A stretch of 64,000 bases of DNA from a virus (IMGVR_UViG_3300012662_000011), one strand, 5' to 3'. Shown: positions 1,757-36,019, counted from the stretch's first letter. Notes: generated from the letters alone by a model not told the origin. Numbers and translations are program-made.

Positions 1757-2323
1757 CTACGGCTTACCCCCCCCCGAGAACTTTGCTCCGTTCGGTGAGG
1801 TGTAGAACTTGCCGCCTACCTTGTCGTACATACCTATCATGCCATCAGATTTGCGCTTGACGGGGATTAGCTTCATTATGTATTTGCCGTTCTCCTTGAT
1901 GTTGAAATAATAGACGTTACCATAAGAATTGTAACTGTCAACGAAGACGGTTATCGGGGCATCACCTCCGATATTCATTATGCTCTCGATTTTCTTGCCT
2001 GTGTACACATCTTCAATCTGTCCGCTCCGAACTATAATGCTGTATATTCCATCTTGCAACGTAACGGGATTAGTGCCTAAGTTAATAAATCTATTATTGA
2101 TTTGGAACTGCCAATATATATCTTTCTGTGGGTAAAACTTAAAGGATTTAGATGTGCCGATAAGCTGAATGTAATCAAGGAGATAGTCCGACTTTACCTC
2201 AATTTCCTTCGATGCAGTCATATCTATCCCTAAGTTTATATACGCATTATTGCCTTTGGTTTTACTGATATACCTTAGCTTCTCATACAAGCTAAGCGAA
2301 TCTCTTCTTCTGTCCGTCCTCAT
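1757..2323 (-). CDS. Putative receptor-binding/tail-fibre tip module A, ending in a G9 tract
   Basis: Arg-rich N-terminus, YEKLRYI, C-terminal LIPVKRKSDGMIGMYDKVGGKFY; directly follows the tail fibre gene. Confidence 0.6.
   Translation of the reverse strand: MRTDRRRDSLSLYEKLRYISKTKGNNAYINLGIDMTASKEIEVKSDYLLDYIQLIGTSKSFKFYPQKDIYWQFQINNRFINLGTNPVTLQDGIYSIIVRSGQIEDVYTGKKIESIMNIGGDAPITVFVDSYNSYGNVYYFNIKENGKYIMKLIPVKRKSDGMIGMYDKVGGKFYTSPNGAKFSGGGKP
1767..1775 (-). repeat. G9 homopolymer at the 3' end of module A
   Basis: C9 on + strand; TCG GGG GGG GGT AAG CCG TAG on -. Confidence 0.9.
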
Positions 2324-4571: not shown

Positions 4572-7500
4572 TTAACCATTGTCTTTGATATGCATAGCAT
4601 AATAGTTTGTACCATCCCATACTAAAAGTATTTCCATAATCTGTCCTTTGTTGACTGTTATACTACTAACCTGTGAGCCGCTCTTGTTGTAGAGTATAGG
4701 TTCCTCTGTTGAAGCCCATGTGCCACTCGATTGTCTACCGCTAATTTTTACCGAATTGGAAGATGTAGGACTGCATATAACCATAATGCGCAAACTCCAC
4801 GCTCCTGAATTGCCAAGGAATGTAGCCACGCCTCCTCTTGCCGGAAGATAGACGTTGACAACTCCGAGGGGGCAGTCAAAAAGCCATCTGTTGCCATAAA
4901 ACTGCAAATCTACAGTACCGATTTCCAACTTTGACGATGAGATGAGAGCGAAACTTGTACCCTCAATCATTCCTCTTAGTATGCCGTGCCCTGTACCCAT
5001 GAAAGCGTAATTTTGTCCTTGCGGATTGCCGCTTGCTTCAAGCCATGCAGCTACATTATAACTACCCCACGGAGTATCATTCTTGCTATATTTTACTTTC
5101 AGCTCAGCCCCCATCAGGTAATTATTATCAAAGATAACTCCTATTTTACTGCTTAGACTCCCATCTGCACCCTGTATTGTAATATTGCTTGCTGCACCTT
5201 TTGACGAGCCCAGCCAACCTTGTGGAATGTCGTAGGTAAGTCCTTGACTACCCACAGAGAAACCTCCGAGGATAGTACCATCCGACTGCTTTTCACCGCA
5301 AAACTTACCATTGCTTATCCATGAATTTTCAGTAACCTGTATATTTTTATAAGTTCCGCTTTCAGCCGTAATGTTAGTGAACGTACCGCCCTCCGCAGTC
5401 ATGTCTGTTGATTTGATATTCTTGAACGTACCACCATTACAAACTATATCATTCGTTTCAAACACTCCGTCAGCATTTACCTTTGCGGTGGTTGTGCCTT
5501 GATTGTTTCTTACCTCAAACGTGTCAGCCGTGGCAGTAATCTTCCTGCTCCGAATATCAATCCCAGTTGCAAGCAGTTCATCAACGCTCACGCCATCCTC
5601 CGTGTAGTCGGTCATACGTCCGCCCTGTTCCAACTTCACACCGCCAATCCATACCTCACTGCCAGCGGCAAGGCGACAGGGGAGGATGCAGCGCACTGTA
5701 CCCTGTTCACGGGTGGAGAAACCGCTCTTTTGCGATGAGGGGGTGAGCATCGGCTTTGTGATGAAGAAGTAACTGCCGTAGGTGCGGAAGTAGATGCGTG
5801 CCGAAGACAACGCAGAACTTGCTTTAAAGGTGATAGAGTGCTCCGTGTAAGCAGTAGCGGATGCGTCAACCTCAACATAAAGGACACCGCTATCAGACTT
5901 CACGGACTGGTCCACTCCGTCCACACATACCGTCATTCCACTGTTGTCTATCGTGTCGAGGGATATTCCCGAAAGATAGATGCGCATGACAGAAGGGCTT
6001 TTCGACTTGAAGGTAACAGTCCACCACGAAGCCCACAGGGACGCTCCCACGGCTTGTGAAATCTCGCAGTAGCTTGCGCCCGAAGACTTGGAGATATATT
6101 GTCCGCCCCATCCGTCAGCAGCAGAAGCGATATGTCGAGTACTCCCTGTAACGTCCCAGTTTGAAGTGTAGCCCGATGCAGCATTGAAACCGGCATTATA
6201 GAAGTAGTTGCCGAAGAGCTGTTTGATGCAGTAGGCTATGCGGATGCGTTGCCAATCAGACGTGAGGGTATGAGGAAGGTAGCCGTCCTCGCCTGTTCCC
6301 ACCTGTCCGAAGTTGTCCGCCACACGCTCGCATGCTTCAGGATAGAGAAAGCTCTTGAAAGTTCCGCTACCCTTTACCCAGAACGACAAAGTATATACCT
6401 CGCCGCTGTCGGGAGCAAAGATGTTGTTCATATAGAGTACGTCAACCTCGGATGAAGAAGTGTTCTTGTAGTGCAGGGCTTGCAGCTTGCGGAAGCCAGT
6501 GTCGAGCGCACCCTCCTGAATATCGCCTACCCTCGACCATTTGCTGTCGGAGAGGACAGGCAGGAAGTTGCCGCTGATGGCAGGGTCGCTCTCGTGCAAA
6601 GACCACGGGGAGCAGACGCTGCCCTCTTCGAGCTGCGCCCAATTGAGGGTAATCAGTCCGTCCTCCTGTGGCTTCGTGTCCTTGAATTTACCCGTAGGGT
6701 GGAATGGATAAGCCTGAAAGTAATACTCCCCGGTGGAGGGTGGCGTAAAGCTGCCGTTGCCCTCCAGTTTGAACGTCAACGTTGCCGTAATGTCCGTAGT
6801 GCTGTCGATGTCGAGATTCACGGCGAACGTCCATCCAAAGTTGAAGATGAAGACACGCAGTACGCCGCCGCCGTTCTTCAGTGCAGCGTCGATATGTCCG
6901 TTGACGGAAAGAGAGTAGTACTTCCCTGCTTCGAGCGTGAACTTCCTCTGTCCTATTCCGTAGATGCGTGAAGTGTTGAAGAAATATGAACGAGGGATAA
7001 GGTTGCGCCCACGGACTGACTGTTGGTCTACCTTCAGGGAGATGCTGTCGGCGGTCTGCTTGATCTCGCTCACGCTTGTTTCCAAAGCTCCTATTTGTTC
7101 GCCGTTTTTGTCCACCTTGGTAGACAGGCCGGCTACCGTTCCCTTGATGCCATTCACGTCAGTCTGTAGTGTTGTAACACTGCCTTTTACCTGCGTAACA
7201 CCCTCGAGGGCATCCTGCGCATCGCTTTCCGCATCTTCGGCGGTCTTCTTTACATCCGTAATCTCTCCCTCAATCTTCTTGACTGCATTGGTAGTATAGT
7301 CGTTGAGATTGGTTATTCTGCCGTTTGTGTCAGACAAGTTGCTGTTGATGTCGGTAATGGCACCGCCGATGTCAGTACCTGTCGTTGTGGAAAAATCGCC
7401 TATGAACTTATTCCCCTTAGGACTAATCTGTGTCTTGACGCAATTAGTCAGCGAGAATGTCTTGATACCTCCATACTGGATGATGGCAGGAGCAAGGTCG

Positions 7501-27106: not shown

Positions 27107-27145
27107 AAACGAGGTACAAGGTTTTACATCTTATACCTCGTTTTT
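27107..27145. terminator. Bidirectional intrinsic terminator between convergent operons
   Basis: AAACGAGGTAcAAG...CTTaTACCTCGTTTT inverted repeat with flanking A/T runs. Confidence 0.75.
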
Positions 27146-27289
27146 GCTATATCCTGTATACAGTGATAATATAACGCACATTCCGTTAGCTGCAATCCCC
27201 TTGTGCATTGTAGCCAATACCGCTCTCGCTTTGTCGTTTGGAGATGTAATATTGCCCCAAATCTTCTCAATATCTTTATCTGTCCTCAT
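27131..27289 (-). CDS. TRD-like mini-ORF m11 (52 aa, intact, no tract)
   Basis: Hand translation: MRTDKDIEKIWGNITSPNDKARAVLATMHKGIAANGMCVILSLYTGYSKNEV. Confidence 0.75.
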   Translation of the reverse strand: MRTDKDIEKIWGNITSPNDKARAVLATMHKGIAANGMCVILSLYTGYSKNEV

Positions 27290-27420
27290 AGCGTTCAAAA
27301 ATATATGTTACACCATTATTGCCACCACCCTTATACATGGTAGCACAAAGGGTAACGGATTTCTCTCGCCCCCCCCCGAAGCTGCTTGTGGATTAAATCC
27401 AATTGATGCTTTGCTGTCAT
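27276..27420 (-). pseudogene. TRD-like mini-ORF m10, frameshifted at G9 (27369-27377); in frame at G8
   Basis: With G8: MTAKHQLDLIHKQLRGGREKSVTLCATMYKGGGNNGVTYIFERYEDR. Confidence 0.75.
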
Positions 27421-27572
27421 TGCTCTCTTAATTCTAAAACAAACGGACGTAGGTCAAAACCACCCACTCCATGAGAATAATAAGCGGTAAGAGTTCCGCA
27501 TTTCTCTCGGGGGGGGGTATGTATAACTATTGACTTATATAAAGTCGGATAAAAAACTAATCTATGTTGCAT
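27417..27572 (-). CDS. TRD-like mini-ORF m9 (51 aa), in frame at C9 (27509-27517)
   Basis: MQHRLVFYPTLYKSIVIHTPPREKCGTLTAYYSHGVGGFDLRPFVLELREQ. Confidence 0.75.
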   Translation of the reverse strand: MQHRLVFYPTLYKSIVIHTPPREKCGTLTAYYSHGVGGFDLRPFVLELREQ

Positions 27573-27716
27573 AAACTTCTAATATGTAAGGTCTGTAACC
27601 TCTTGTATCATATCCTTTATGGTATGACGCTTCTATACCCCCCCGATAGAATATTCCACCGAAGAGAAAGTCCTTAGTCCTCCGTTAACCTGAGGATGTA
27701 CTTGGTATTTTCTCAT
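27562..27716 (-). pseudogene. TRD-like mini-ORF m8, frameshifted at G7 (27638-27644); in frame at G8
   Basis: With G8: MRKYQVHPQVNGGLRTFSSVEYSIGGGIEASYHKGYDTRGYRPYILEVYAT. Confidence 0.75.
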
Positions 27717-27846
27717 ACAAACTTAAAATTATAGCCCTTACATTCCTGTTCGGGTCGCAACCCTTCCAATCATTCGCCATCAAAGCTTGACATTTTCTTT
27801 TTTTTGTCTGCCACGGCTTGAAATGGTCAAGTAGATATTCTCTCAT
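27685..27846 (-). CDS. TRD-like mini-ORF m7 (53 aa), in frame at A8 (27798-27805)
   Basis: MREYLLDHFKPWQTKKRKCQALMANDWKGCDPNRNVRAIILSLYEKIPSTSSG. Confidence 0.75.
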   Translation of the reverse strand: MREYLLDHFKPWQTKKRKCQALMANDWKGCDPNRNVRAIILSLYEKIPSTSSG

Positions 27847-28027
27847 AAACTTCAAGTAAATAATTTATCTGCCCTCCCGACATTACGGAACTTGTTTTCG
27901 CATCTGGTCTACAGGAGTAAGCAAGCAGGGTGCATCTTGTGCCATATTTCCGTTCACCTAAAGAATATTCTTTCCATACCTTTTTGCCGAGTTCTGTGCG
28001 ATATTGATTAAGTATTCGTTTTCTCAT
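27827..28027 (-). CDS. TRD-like mini-ORF m6 (66 aa, intact, no tract)
   Basis: ORF track; ...RPDAKTSSVMSGGQINYLLEVYE; paralog of m0. Confidence 0.75.
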   Translation of the reverse strand: MRKRILNQYRTELGKKVWKEYSLGERKYGTRCTLLAYSCRPDAKTSSVMSGGQINYLLEVYERIST

Positions 28028-28172
28028 GCAATTCTAACACCTTTATTCCTAAACCACCGCCTGTGTCCGTTTGGCAGCAAATTGCCCCCCCGTGAACAGA
28101 ATAGAACCTATGCCGTTGTCTTGCGGTGTTTCCCCACTCATGGTTGCCGTTTAATTGTATCGGTTTTGTCAT
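28008..28172 (-). CDS. TRD-like mini-ORF m5 (54 aa), in frame at G7 (28085-28091)
   Basis: MTKPIQLNGNHEWGNTARQRHRFYSVHGGAICCQTDTGGGLGIKVLELHEKTNT. Confidence 0.75.
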   Translation of the reverse strand: MTKPIQLNGNHEWGNTARQRHRFYSVHGGAICCQTDTGGGLGIKVLELHEKTNT

Positions 28173-28314
28173 AAAGTATTATTAATGTATTATCCTTTGC
28201 CACAGAAGTAAGGAAACTTGACTTTTGCCCTCTAAGCTCCAAACTTTGGCGGTGTGAAGAATTATGCCACTCGCCTTCTGAACGTCCTCTAACGGCTGCT
28301 GTATTAACTCTCAT
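28138..28314 (-). CDS. TRD-like mini-ORF m4 (58 aa, intact, no tract)
   Basis: MRVNTAAVRGRSEGEWHNSSHRQSLELRGQKSSFLTSVAKDNTLIILYDKTDTIKRQP. Confidence 0.8.
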   Translation of the reverse strand: MRVNTAAVRGRSEGEWHNSSHRQSLELRGQKSSFLTSVAKDNTLIILYDKTDTIKRQP

Positions 28315-28436
28315 AAAGTTTCAATAAACAATCGCTTTGCGAATTATTCCCCGCTCCGTGAGAACCCACACATAAAGCTGTTGCCTTATTAGATTTTGCA
28401 AGCCCCCCCCCTACGGCTAATCTTAATTTCTCTCAT
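28304..28436 (-). pseudogene. TRD-like mini-ORF m3, frameshifted at G9 (28403-28411); in frame at G8
   Basis: With G8: MREIKISRRGGLAKSNKATALCVGSHGAGNNSQSDCLLKLYES. Confidence 0.75.
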
Positions 28437-28605
28437 AAACTCTGATTATATACCCCCCCCGATGCGCTGTCTGTAAACACTGATGCTTTACAGAAACAAA
28501 TGATATTGTACCAAATTCCGTAAGACTTCCTTTATGTCCGTCATTTTGATAGGGTCTTAATCCGTCTTCGGTAACTGATACACCATGTAATCTACATCCT
28601 TTCAT
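28423..28605 (-). CDS. TRD-like mini-ORF m2 (60 aa), in frame at G8 (28453-28460)
   Basis: ORF track; ...KHQCLQTAHRGGYIIRVYERN. Confidence 0.75.
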   Translation of the reverse strand: MKGCRLHGVSVTEDGLRPYQNDGHKGSLTEFGTISFVSVKHQCLQTAHRGGYIIRVYERN

Positions 28606-28739
28606 ATATTTCTATTACTCCTGAATGTTGCCTGTGCCCCGGAACATACCACCAATCCTTATATCTCGTGTTCAAGGCTGCTGATTTTTCAGTGGGGGGG
28701 GGTAATACCATTACCCATATTAAACGCTTGCATCCTCAT
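28592..28739 (-). pseudogene. TRD-like mini-ORF m1, frameshifted at C9 (28694-28702); in frame at C8
   Basis: With C8: MRMQAFNMGNGITPPTEKSAALNTRYKDWWYVPGHRQHSGVIEIYERM; ATG overlaps the end of the methyltransferase gene. Confidence 0.75.
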
Positions 28740-29943
28740 ATATTTCGCGAAGTCTTTGCTGTTCCTGTTTATACCCAAACTCTGCCAGTTCATGTTTTTC
28801 ATCGTTAGACAGGTATGAGTATTCATCTGAACTATTCAACCAATCAACGACCTCATCCATACTAACTTGCGGCTCTAAAAGATAGGCTTTAAGCTTCTTT
28901 TTATCTGTCCGTTCCATAAGTTGCCGAACGGTAGCATCTTTCAGATAATATTTTTCATCCGCCTTTTCTTGCAGTATATCCTTGATTACAAGCCCTCTGT
29001 CTTCTGGTTGTGGAATATCCGTTTGCAATGGGGGCAAGGCGAATGGATCCTTGTCGTCATAGAACAAAGAGTCTCCCGCAACTTCCTTTGTCCTTATGTT
29101 AGTCCAATATATACGTCTTCTGTTTTGTGCCGATACCAAAGCGGAATTGATATGAACGCCACGCACACCGATAGCATGGGAAAGACACCTTTCCCACTTC
29201 TCCAACATCTTGACGTTTTCAAGAAAGAAATAAATATCCGGATTATACTTAAGCAATTCTGTAAGTATTCGCATGTATTCCCAAAATAGATAAGATTGCC
29301 CTTCAAACTGAAAGTTCTGTGATTTTAATTCAAGGTATCTATCAAGGGTGTAAATCTCTTCACCTTTCTTTGTACTCATACCTTTCATCTTGCCAGAAAA
29401 CGAAAAGTTGGTACACGGTGAACCTCCCATAATTATATCGGGAACACCATATTTTTCTACAATTTCATCAACATTCAACTCCGTTACACTACCTAACTGG
29501 ATAGTGTCAGGAAAGTTATGTTGAGTATTGGCTATTGCGTATTTATCAATTTCAGATGCAAGGTAGGTATCTATTTTTGCACCTACGCCACGGAGAGACA
29601 TTTGCCCCCCCGAAATTCCGTCAAACAATGACAAAACCTTAATACCATTCAGCTTTTCTTTTGGTATAAAGCTGAATATATGCTTAATTGTTTCAATGTT
29701 CCATCCGTTCCCCAAACCTTTATATTGCTGCGTTTCAGATGTAACAAATTCATAATCATGCGGTAATGTTTGCAATTCTGCACACTCTTGTGGAGTCAGT
29801 CTACGTATTGCAGCAACGTATTTTATTCCGTTAACCTCGAAGTCTACACCCTGTTTATTATCCGGCATAGTCTTCTTAAAATCCTCAAACTGCTTCTCTT
29901 TTACCTTGCAGTAAACCTTTCTTGCTATTTCTTCTTTTCCCAT
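28720..29943 (-). CDS. Circularly permuted C5-cytosine DNA methyltransferase with no obvious TRD
   Basis: Motif order IX (RRLTPQECAELQ), X (QYKGLGNGW), I (LSLFDGISG), IV (GGSPC), VI (FFLENV), VIII (AQNRRRIYW). Confidence 0.92.
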   Translation of the reverse strand: MGKEEIARKVYCKVKEKQFEDFKKTMPDNKQGVDFEVNGIKYVAAIRRLTPQECAELQTLPHDYEFVTSETQQYKGLGNGWNIETIKHIFSFIPKEKLNGIKVLSLFDGISGGQMSLRGVGAKIDTYLASEIDKYAIANTQHNFPDTIQLGSVTELNVDEIVEKYGVPDIIMGGSPCTNFSFSGKMKGMSTKKGEEIYTLDRYLELKSQNFQFEGQSYLFWEYMRILTELLKYNPDIYFFLENVKMLEKWERCLSHAIGVRGVHINSALVSAQNRRRIYWTNIRTKEVAGDSLFYDDKDPFALPPLQTDIPQPEDRGLVIKDILQEKADEKYYLKDATVRQLMERTDKKKLKAYLLEPQVSMDEVVDWLNSSDEYSYLSNDEKHELAEFGYKQEQQRLREIYEDASV

Positions 29944-30125
29944 ATATTCAATACTAAATTATCCATTATGACAGTAACAATAGTACCACTCTTTAAGTCG
30001 GGACGTACTTGATAGGAACACATGGATGAACGGTTATACCATTTGTTTCTTATTCCACTATCATACTCCTTCCGAAACATTCACCCCAACTCGTTACGAT
30101 ACTTATTTAGGATGACTTCAACCAT
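29925..30125 (-). pseudogene. TRD-like mini-ORF m0 upstream of the methyltransferase, with in-frame TGA at 30081-30083
   Basis: MVEVILNKYRNELG*MFRKEYDSGIRNKWYNRSSMCSYQVRPDLKSGTIVTVIMDNLVLNIWEKKK; aligns with m6 and has the same 201-nt length. Confidence 0.75.
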
Positions 30126-30619
30126 TGGCTCTGTTTTATATCGTGTCGATTACAAGTTGCATCTTTTCCGTTAATAACTTCTACATTAACATCTCCGTAA
30201 CAATACAATTCAAGAATACCGTCATTTTTAATTATCACATTTGACACTTTGCTAAGATACAGTTTGCAAATACCACCTTGACTATTGTGTATCACGGAAC
30301 AATCCCCCAAAACTAAATTTATGGTTGCGGGAAGAACGAACTCAAATCTCGGATTTACAAACATTATACTCGTATATCCATCTTTATTCCTTAAATACTG
30401 ACCGTGTACATAATTTCGAAAGATACTCTTTTCAAGGAAGTCGAAGCTTACTCCCCAACCGAAAGCCATAGCGTCAGCAAGAAACTCAACTCCATTGCTA
30501 TCAAGAGCAAGATCCATGACTTCTTTTTCTGTCCTACACGCATCCCACAAGGCTTTATATTTTCCACATAAACCTAACTTTAAAGCATTTCTCTTTAATG
30601 ATAACAACTCATTACTCAT
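30107..30619 (-). CDS. Hypothetical phage protein
   Basis: 170 aa ORF in tightly packed operon. Confidence 0.7.
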   Translation of the reverse strand: MSNELLSLKRNALKLGLCGKYKALWDACRTEKEVMDLALDSNGVEFLADAMAFGWGVSFDFLEKSIFRNYVHGQYLRNKDGYTSIMFVNPRFEFVLPATINLVLGDCSVIHNSQGGICKLYLSKVSNVIIKNDGILELYCYGDVNVEVINGKDATCNRHDIKQSQWLKSS

Positions 30620-35141: not shown

Positions 35142-36019
35142 GTTGCAATCCAAACAACAACAAAACATAATACTATACACTATATATATAATTATATTAA
35201 TTTAACAATTATCGCATCTATATATATTAAAATATTTAACAATGTACGCATATAGATAAGGGTTATCATATATCTAACCATATATTATCATATAGTTCAA
35301 TATATGTGTAGACAATAGGAACAATGATAATATATGAACATATATAACCCTTATAGAAGTAAAGACATACGTGCCCTCCGGATAAAAAAACACAGCAAAA
35401 GCGAAATAAAGCGTTCTAAGACGTTTTTACACGGCAAGACCTATAATTTACCACAGAAAACATAAAACTCGCTTAAAACGACTTAAAAGTGGATTAAAAC
35501 GAATCTAACGACACGTATGTACTTGCTGAAAATAAAAAAAATAAAAAAAATTTGGAAAAGAGCGGGTTCGGGTGCTGCTCCCTGGTCGCCGGGGGGGGTG
35601 GATGCAAACTTTATACGGTGCATAATATAGGACTATAGAGCATATAATAGCGAGCATATTGCAAACGAAACGAACGTTACCCACGGAATATAAGCATATC
35701 AAACGCAATATAAGCGCATATAACAGCATAATATACTGTGCACACTACATTACACGTACAAAGACCTCAAAAGACGTTACACACACTTATATTGCATGCG
35801 TATATGTACTAAGGCGAATTGCATACTATCTTACATATAACTTATCTCCAGTATACTGCAGCACTCCAATTTTGCGGTGGGAGATATTTGCGCTTACATT
35901 ACGCGACTGCAATTACATGCATATATATTATATATAATAGGTGTAAACACACGTTTTTCGCTATATTTGTCAAGATTTTAAAAAACATACGCTATTTTAC
36001 AAAGATTTTAATCAAAACT

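Follow-up and report, generated by a model that had tools for sequence, protein, structure and literature searches.

Related Methyltransferase Systems and the Locus Studied

Multispecific C5 cytosine methyltransferases (MTases) are known from the temperate Bacillus phages SPR, phi3T, rho11s, and H2. Their short target recognition domains (TRDs) stand in tandem on one catalytic core, between the conserved motifs VIII and IX of a single polypeptide, and are gained and lost as modules. The locus described here lies in a 64,000-nt stretch of phage DNA, IMGVR_UViG_3300012662_000011 (the window). It consists of a C5 MTase gene with eleven very small genes behind it (U1–U11) and a twelfth (m0) ahead of it, which code for TRD-like peptides. 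It shares the tandem short TRDs, the single core, and the modular gain and loss with the SPR-type enzymes and with a clade of fused gut-phage enzymes (loci L024-L075), to whose modules U4, U6, U10, and U11 are homologous. In contrast to both, the TRDs here are separate genes, most of them carry a homopolymer run, and the core is permuted. It is probable, in our judgement, that the locus encodes a multispecific C5 MTase that has been taken apart into a catalytic chain and stand-alone TRD subunits with one-base switches.

In the natural permuted (Type H) C5 MTases M.BssHII, M.Alw26I, M2.Eco31I, M.Esp3I, and M2.BsaI (PMC5944983), motifs IX-X precede motifs I-VIII, as they do here, and a relative of the present locus, L009, has the full order TRD-IX-X-I-VIII in one chain. 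The TRD of the Type H enzymes is N-terminal in the same chain, whereas here it is replaced by a separate, interrupted m0 and eleven TRD genes past motif VIII. Activity from separate chains is known from the two-polypeptide enzymes M.AquI and M.EcoHK31I and from the fragment complementation of M.SssI, M.BspRI, and M.HhaI (PMC3404938), and these enzymes tolerate a break within or beside the variable region. M.AquI and M.EcoHK31I consist of two fixed chains with one specificity; here, the TRD alone is detached, and it comes in twelve alternative versions.

Separate, switchable specificity subunits (HsdS) are a property of Type I systems. Repeat-phase-variable bacterial MTases include the Type III Mod phasevarions (PMC6902483) and Type IIG enzymes in Campylobacter (PMC4889913), in which a homopolymer in the open reading frame (ORF) allows on/off changes by one base. 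The present locus resembles both, with a specificity subunit apart from the catalytic one and homopolymers inside the ORFs. The bacterial phase-variable enzymes are adenine MTases with one switch each, whereas this is a phage C5 enzyme with seven G/C runs as candidate switches and one more on the core. Hypermutable polyG tracts are also reported from Campylobacter phages (Sorensen et al. 2021, Cell Rep 35:109214, via PMC12823448). These G runs reportedly diversify the phenotype, as is proposed here, with receptor-binding proteins as their targets instead of DNA-methylation specificity. Each ingredient therefore has a precedent, in multispecific, permuted, two-chain, and repeat-switched MTases and in phage polyG tracts. 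A full-text search of the literature gave no description of stand-alone C5 TRD genes, of their arrays, or of repeat-switched phage C5 MTases.

A Catalytic Chain without a TRD and Twelve Small Genes

All C5 motifs can be read in the MTase ORF, and they are invariant in an alignment with 10 relatives. Their order is IX (RRLTPQEC), X (GNGW), I (LFDGISGG), IV (GGSPC), VI (ENV), and VIII (QNRRR). Since motifs IX-X lie ahead of I-VIII, the MTase is circularly permuted. The PDB matches of the chain were DNMT3A/B, DRM2, and M.HhaI, and the alignment with the likewise permuted plant enzyme DRM2 runs contiguously from motif X into motif I. No TRD-like segment was found in the 407-aa chain, and residues 300-407 are without the K-x-x-x-L core that characterizes the small units. 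Two parts are specific to the split family, the first 45 aa and some 50 aa at the C-terminus; nothing in the fused clade corresponds to residues 359-407.

The eleven units follow directly after the MTase on the minus strand (Table 1). The ATG of each lies 4-35 nt upstream of the stop of the preceding ORF and is, in most cases, nested in a Tyr-Glu codon pair (T-ATG-A), so that each unit is read +1 relative to the previous one. The MTase and m0 are arranged alike, the start of the former overlapping the end of the latter at an Ile-Trp pair. All 12 modules have their own ATG, stop, and frame, and none of them is in one polypeptide with the core. The common plan of the units comprises a variable N-terminus, a K-x-x-x-L core, a Gly-rich loop, and a hydrophobic strand ending in E-x-Y-E. 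Such units escape gene callers or are joined wrongly by them, which makes the class invisible in current annotations.

Seven units (U2, U4, U5, U6, U7, U9, and U11) are open as sequenced. U1, U3, U8, and U10 stop just past their own runs, and a one-base change in the run restores the full length of each. Frame changes in the array are confined to the unit junctions and these runs. In m0, codon 15 is an in-frame TGA (30081-30083) with an ATG directly after it. The m0 orthologue in the nearest sequence, L079 (a 71.6 kb contig from a metagenome-assembled genome (MAG) of Prevotella sp., Hadza gut sample, MTase 92% identical), is intact, with 66 aa and an Arg at the TGA codon.

An earlier note, made from the window's sequence alone, had described eleven overlapping mini-ORFs and a twelfth upstream as peptides, most of them of one shared plan, that serve a MTase split from its TRD, with up to 12 specificities. 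All twelve mini-ORFs exist, and the separation of the MTase from its TRD was borne out by the permuted, TRD-less chain. The shared plan is real and goes beyond chance because every unit has separate-ORF orthologues under purifying selection. With seven units open and m0 interrupted in the present copy, the figure of 12 specificities is an upper bound.

Table 1. Coordinates of the features of the locus; on the minus strand, each gene starts at its higher coordinate.
Feature	Coordinates	Strand	Run	State as sequenced	Remarks
m0, TRD-like, upstream of MTase	29925..30125	-			Paralogue of U6; ends ...NIWEKKK; overlaps MTase start
C5 cytosine MTase, catalytic chain, 407 aa	28720..29943	-			PF00145, E 8e-38
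Run in MTase motif I	29605..29611	-	G7	In frame (ON)	Candidate master switch; length differs among relatives
U1	28592..28739	-	C9, 28694-28702	OFF	48 aa with C8
U2, 60 aa	28423..28605	-	G8, 28453-28460	ON	Run just ahead of C-terminal strand
U3	28304..28436	-	G9, 28403-28411	OFF	43 aa with G8
U4, 58 aa	28138..28314	-	None	ON	Homologue of fused TRD module b
U5, 54 aa	28008..28172	-	G7, 28085-28091	ON
U6, 66 aa	27827..28027	-	None	ON	m0 paralogue; corresponds to fused module b in its long form
U7, 53 aa	27685..27846	-	A8, 27798-27805	ON
U8	27562..27716	-	G7, 27638-27644	OFF	51 aa with G8
U9, 51 aa	27417..27572	-	C9, 27509-27517	ON	Unit taken for co-fold
U10	27276..27420	-	G9, 27369-27377	OFF	47 aa with G8
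U11, 52 aa	27131..27289	-	None	ON	Clear homologue of fused TRD module d
Hairpin, 11-bp	27110..27140	-			-15.1 kcal/mol; overlaps U11 stop, between convergent operons

Homology of Four Unit Types to TRD Modules

A protein-guided scan of IMG/VR gave 76 loci. L024-L075 code for one-chain MTases of 321-470 aa with motifs in the order I-X and a catalytic core about 50% identical to that of the window. Their VIII-IX region consists of 1-4 tandem modules in varying combinations, and, by sequence, these are classical multispecific enzymes. Profile searches had been expected to place the peptides in this variable region, and they did so for four unit types. U11 shares 57% identity over 28 aa with module d (hhalign probability 93.6%, E 2e-7), U6 and U4 matched module b (E 1e-4 and 3e-4), and U10 matched module d (E 4e-4). 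Beyond their last module, the fused enzymes run on into a motif IX-X segment that is clearly homologous to the N-terminus of the window MTase. The fused one-chain type was also seen in a cultured isolate, Prevotella sp. oral taxon 376 strain F0043, which has two copies (L081 and L082; 57% identity) with a U11-like TRD inside the gene.

A natural link between a TRD unit and the permuted MTase is provided by L009-L011. There, the upstream unit is fused in frame to the N-terminus of the permuted MTase, which gives the M.BssHII-type order TRD-IX-X-I-VIII. A fused form of U9 was not found among longer proteins, the products having only 98-146 aa. An exhaustive profile search with U9 through 1.84 billion representatives returned 8 hits, of which 7 were proteins of 29-88 aa and the only long one was an unrelated repeat protein; in these searches, the U9 type thus occurs as small proteins only.

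Modelled Docking of U9 on the Catalytic Chain

The MTase and U9 were co-folded in three runs, each chain with its own alignment (A1 and A2, respectively). The interface score ipSAE was 0.81, against 0.02 for the best control; of 80 solved complexes, 58 reach the mark set for this score, as do 2 of 110 mismatched pairs. The runs agreed in at least 70% of the contacts, and the predicted local distance difference test score (pLDDT) of U9 was at least 46. In the model, the last ten residues of U9 (42-51) pair in antiparallel fashion with the strand ahead of motif IX (MTase residues 40-49). The K-C-G-T-L core (U9 24-28) adjoins motif VIII (MTase 268-275), and the N-terminal leader of U9 contacts MTase residues 319-364. 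A short turn (D-N-G-N in the fused clade) connects the last TRD strand of one-chain enzymes to the strand before motif IX, so the split falls in a hairpin turn. The model supports a fit of U9 into the TRD position of the MTase, which is not the same as binding.

The mini-proteins could also bind the MTase as regulators or inhibitors, or be other anti-defence factors, without setting its specificity. The co-fold speaks to docking only and not to DNA recognition, and the seven unit types without a detectable TRD homologue would suit such a role. Four types, on the other hand, are clear TRD homologues, the plan and the docking strand are common to all 11, and the MTase would otherwise be left without any TRD though its catalytic motifs are conserved. 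For this reason, a role other than specificity is considered unlikely.

Orthologous Arrays and Purifying Selection

The same permuted MTase, 62-84% identical and followed by an array, is found in L001-L023 (23 of the 76 loci). Within these loci, all 11 unit types have intact orthologues as separate ORFs with the same nested starts, and orthologues of the unit types also occur in the Prevotella MAG. The arrays of the relatives are reshuffled subsets of about 13 families, and the starts and stops are kept across relatives whose MTases are 62-92% identical. A comparison of arrays across related phages had been proposed in the earlier note, as had the co-folding; the former revealed the same unit families as separate ORFs, and in the latter the modelled U9 passed the controls and took the TRD position. 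Like the profile searches, both speak for the interpretation given in the note.

Compared with orthologues in their own frames, the units have ratios of non-synonymous to synonymous substitution rates (dN/dS) of 0.02-0.29 where these are estimable, in pairs with dS of about 0.7 or higher; in most other pairs of units and orthologues, dS is saturated. The lowest ratio, 0.02, belongs to U6 compared with L005, with 17 synonymous and 2 non-synonymous differences. Purifying selection extends to the four units that are OFF in the window (U1, U3, U8, and U10). By these substitution patterns, the mini-ORFs are real genes and not a decaying pseudogene.

Two distant U9-type proteins likewise adjoin PF00145 genes on the downstream side (L077 and L078). 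L077 (2481-7083) has a 236-aa ORF with motifs I-VIII only, then about 17 mini-ORFs, and then a separate ORF with motifs IX and X. As predicted from these ORFs, the whole enzyme is in pieces in the canonical order. Most of its mini-ORFs end in a motif close to I-L-E-Y-E-E-V, and its array lacks long G/C runs. The IX/X ORF has 327 aa with the two motifs ~230 aa apart, and the intervening stretch overlaps an HNH-like ORF (6306-6938) in another frame. The C-terminal motif of the units is kept in L077 even without a nested next start, and it therefore belongs to the protein itself and is more than a side effect of the start codon. The permuted MTase of L078 (1579-3713) belongs to the same family as that of the window; an intein (Hint domain) follows its catalytic Cys in motif IV, and 3 stand-alone units and thyX lie downstream.

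Within the TRD array of L009 (5951-6151), and also in L010 and L011, there is a 66-aa zinc-ribbon ORF with two CxxC pairs; in L011, it is fused in frame with a U9-type unit. MTase genes with frameshifts away from G/C runs of at least 7 nt were seen in L020 (5600-5730), L021 (4890-5050), and L023 (5090-5230), and these may be assembly errors or true inactivation.

Homopolymer Runs as Candidate Switches

The runs were absent from the earlier note, and with them the picture is no longer that of a fixed 12-fold enzyme; the enzyme would be stochastic and combinatorial. G/C runs of 7-9 nt lie in the coding sequence of 7 units, U7 has a run of A8, and a one-base change in a run restores or destroys the frame of its unit. 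The base composition predicts about 1.3 G/C runs of at least 7 nt in the whole window. There are 10 in the 64 kb, and 8 of these fall within 27369-29611.

The lengths of the runs differ between close relatives. When orthologous runs with identical flanks were compared, the length varied in 13 of 17 shared G/C runs and in 1 of 7 A/T runs, which served as the control. Between identical flanks of 25+25 nt, the U1 run is C7, C8, C8, and C9 in L001, L002, L003, and L022, respectively, and two further sites in this group show G7/G6/G9 and G7/G9. In the nearly identical contigs L013-L017, the unit ahead of the MTase has G6, G7, G8, G7, and G9 and is open with G7 only; with flanks of 25+25 nt again identical, another run in these contigs is G7 in four and G8 in one, and the U10 run is G8 or G9 in L013-L016. 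From such sequence differences, we infer that switching takes place within one population.

Between the window and L079, the length differs at four runs with recognisable flanks, those of the MTase, U2, U3, and U10. The MTase run is G8 in L079 and G7 here, between 15+15 identical bases, and the L079 gene is thereby split. L079 has G7 in U2 (G8 here), G10 in U3 (G9 here), and G7 in U10 (G9 here). The motif-I run is G7 and disruptive in L018, and it is G6 and in frame in L001 and L003. Orthologues of U5 are off at the run in L001, L003, L005, and L022. The A8 of U7 has the same length in L079, and there is no sign of switching at this run. In the run-free lineages (L006-L008 and L019), every unit is open. 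At one and the same place in the U9 linker, the run consists of C in one lineage and of G in another, which suggests that runs have been gained repeatedly.

It can be argued that the runs are not switches but G/C-rich codons of Gly/Pro linkers, and that their length differences reflect assembly errors or incipient gene loss. Each run does lie in the linker that varies most within its unit, where it codes for GG or PP; the data are consensus assemblies, and poly-G is error-prone on Illumina machines. Nevertheless, orthologous linkers elsewhere have mixed codons or no Gly/Pro, the base of the U9 run depends on the lineage, and the excess of variation in G/C runs over A/T runs, the concentration of runs at the locus, and the purifying selection on the OFF units all speak for switches. 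We therefore give the linker explanation only a small chance.

A chimeric unit in L005 (6969-7149) consists of a U8 leader and a U10 core joined exactly at the G run, and U9 is missing. This suggests a deletion by recombination between runs, and the runs may also act as recombination points.

Separate Genes or One Chain

A different possibility is that recoding, by a +1 shift at the T-ATG-A junctions or by slippage at the runs, joins the units into a one-chain multispecific enzyme with a C-terminal TRD tail. The frame does move +1 at every junction, and the fused sister clade demonstrates that tandem TRDs work in one chain. In L079, the U2 run is one base shorter, which gives a read-through into the U3 frame, and the in-frame zinc-ribbon and U9-type fusion of L011 points in the same direction. 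However, an ATG, needless for a frameshift, is kept at every junction, both here and in the relatives, and no known +1 slippery context is found there; a fusion by repeated +1 frameshifting is unlikely for these reasons. Moreover, eleven shifts in succession would give a negligible yield, some junctions of L077 have the start after the stop, and none of the 23 IMG/VR loci that encode the permuted MTase has it fused with U1. Recoding is judged to be somewhat less probable still than the linker explanation of the runs.

A decayed pseudogene of a once-fused multispecific MTase, as the many frame changes, the short ORFs, and the four interrupted units of the 1.6 kb region might suggest, is highly improbable, given the low dN/dS in the own frame of each unit, the conserved starts and stops, and the restriction of frame changes to junctions and runs.

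Reassignment of stop codons was considered and dropped; the frames of the units differ, so recoded stops cannot account for the pattern.

Proposed Mechanism and Its Significance

The disassembled, switchable enzyme favoured here might work as follows. A TRD-less catalytic chain (IX-X-I-VIII) would be served by the 12 short surrounding genes with one TRD module each, every module being translated alone from the ATG just ahead of the stop of the preceding gene. According to the model, a TRD peptide would dock in trans, its conserved C-terminal strand (h-h-E-h-Y-E) lining up beside the strand before motif IX. Docking would rebuild the small domain and set the methylated sequence, presumably one motif per unit. 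The peptides would compete for one site, and the enzyme pool could then methylate several motifs. One-base slipped-strand changes in the G/C runs would turn single units or the whole enzyme on and off randomly, and this random switching would create many methylation states across a phage or lysogen population. Since each start lies within the ORF before it, the translation of a unit may drop when the preceding one is OFF, and such translational polarity would add to the combinatorics. The benefit may be an escape from several host restriction systems, balanced against methyl-dependent restriction and against the dilution of the single docking site.

Several observations weigh against this reading. 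Four units and m0 are off in the present copy, which is also how early decay would look. U1, U2, U3, U5, U7, U8, and U9 gave no detectable hhalign match to the four fused TRD modules. Such an absence is expected if the specificities differ, and the TRD nature of these seven types is based on the shared architecture. The profile of U9 found no MTase in the PDB and only a weak, spurious match to sulfite reductase. The structural models have weak sides as well. AlphaFold2 modelled the MTase alone poorly from the 10-row alignment, with a pLDDT of 62, and the pLDDT of U9 in the co-fold is low (47-58). Since one-chain C5 MTases have been solved, the success of the co-fold may partly reflect the memory of the model. 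Finally, the run lengths come from metagenome consensus assemblies, in which poly-G is also error-prone.

The relatives raise the question of a general "disaggregated" class in phages of the gut and other anaerobes. Its members would combine a TRD-less chain, permuted or split, with 3-17 stand-alone TRD mini-proteins that share the docking strand. In one lineage, each mini-gene and the core would have gained a hypermutable run, and a single genotype could then produce as many as ~2^7 different methylomes in addition to a state with everything off. Such a class is about as likely as not.

If the peptides act in trans, the recognition of a C5 MTase can be supplied by an exchangeable subunit of ~50 residues. 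An exchangeable specificity subunit is known for Type I systems and not for C5 MTases. The locus, if correctly read, would show a temperate phage hedging between the escape from host restriction and the avoidance of methyl-dependent restriction, and it would bring phage-borne epigenetic heterogeneity into the lysogens of abundant gut bacteria. One catalytic chain with plug-in modules of 5-8 kDa and a defined docking strand would also be a compact scaffold for programmable 5-methylcytosine (m5C) methylation.

The Phage and the Setting of the Locus

The window is phage DNA with genes for a large terminase, a major head protein, a RuvC-like resolvase, and a tape-measure-like ORF of 2180 aa. An integrase is encoded at 45806-47017, and the phage is therefore temperate. 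It is a gut phage, probably with Prevotella as its host. A megablast search with 20 kb of the window gave no match in the 50,697 deposited phage genomes, and the phage thus lacks a cultured close relative. With the DNA of the locus as the query, blastn matched the catalytic core alone, in phages of Bacteroides and Phocaeicola. A tblastn search of the same 50,697-record collection with U9 and U11 gave nothing at E 0.01, the queries being too short for a database of this size.

The locus forms the end of a long minus-strand operon that converges with the tape-measure gene. The hairpin at the U11 stop is likely the terminator of the array, and no terminator-like sites were found within the array. 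A scan for sigma-70 promoters gave nothing above chance (the host group relies on promoters of another kind), and a search for the Bacteroidota -7 box yielded scattered candidates and no more. Immediately upstream of m0 lies a 170-aa ORF (30107-30619) without a Pfam or PHROG family, the position of which is kept in L001, L005, L018, and L079.

Two further runs were noticed away from the locus. In the tail/structural module, a G9 run (1767-1775, minus strand) lies four codons before the stop of a 188-aa ORF (1757-2323), and the loss of one base or the gain of two would swap the last residues for a tail about 20 aa longer (206-207 aa). By analogy with the receptor-binding proteins of Campylobacter phages, this could be a second phase-variable gene. 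The other run, G8 at 35591-35598, lies just after A8-T-A8 in a gap of ~500 bp (35164-35658) between divergent operons, where it could affect promoter spacing.

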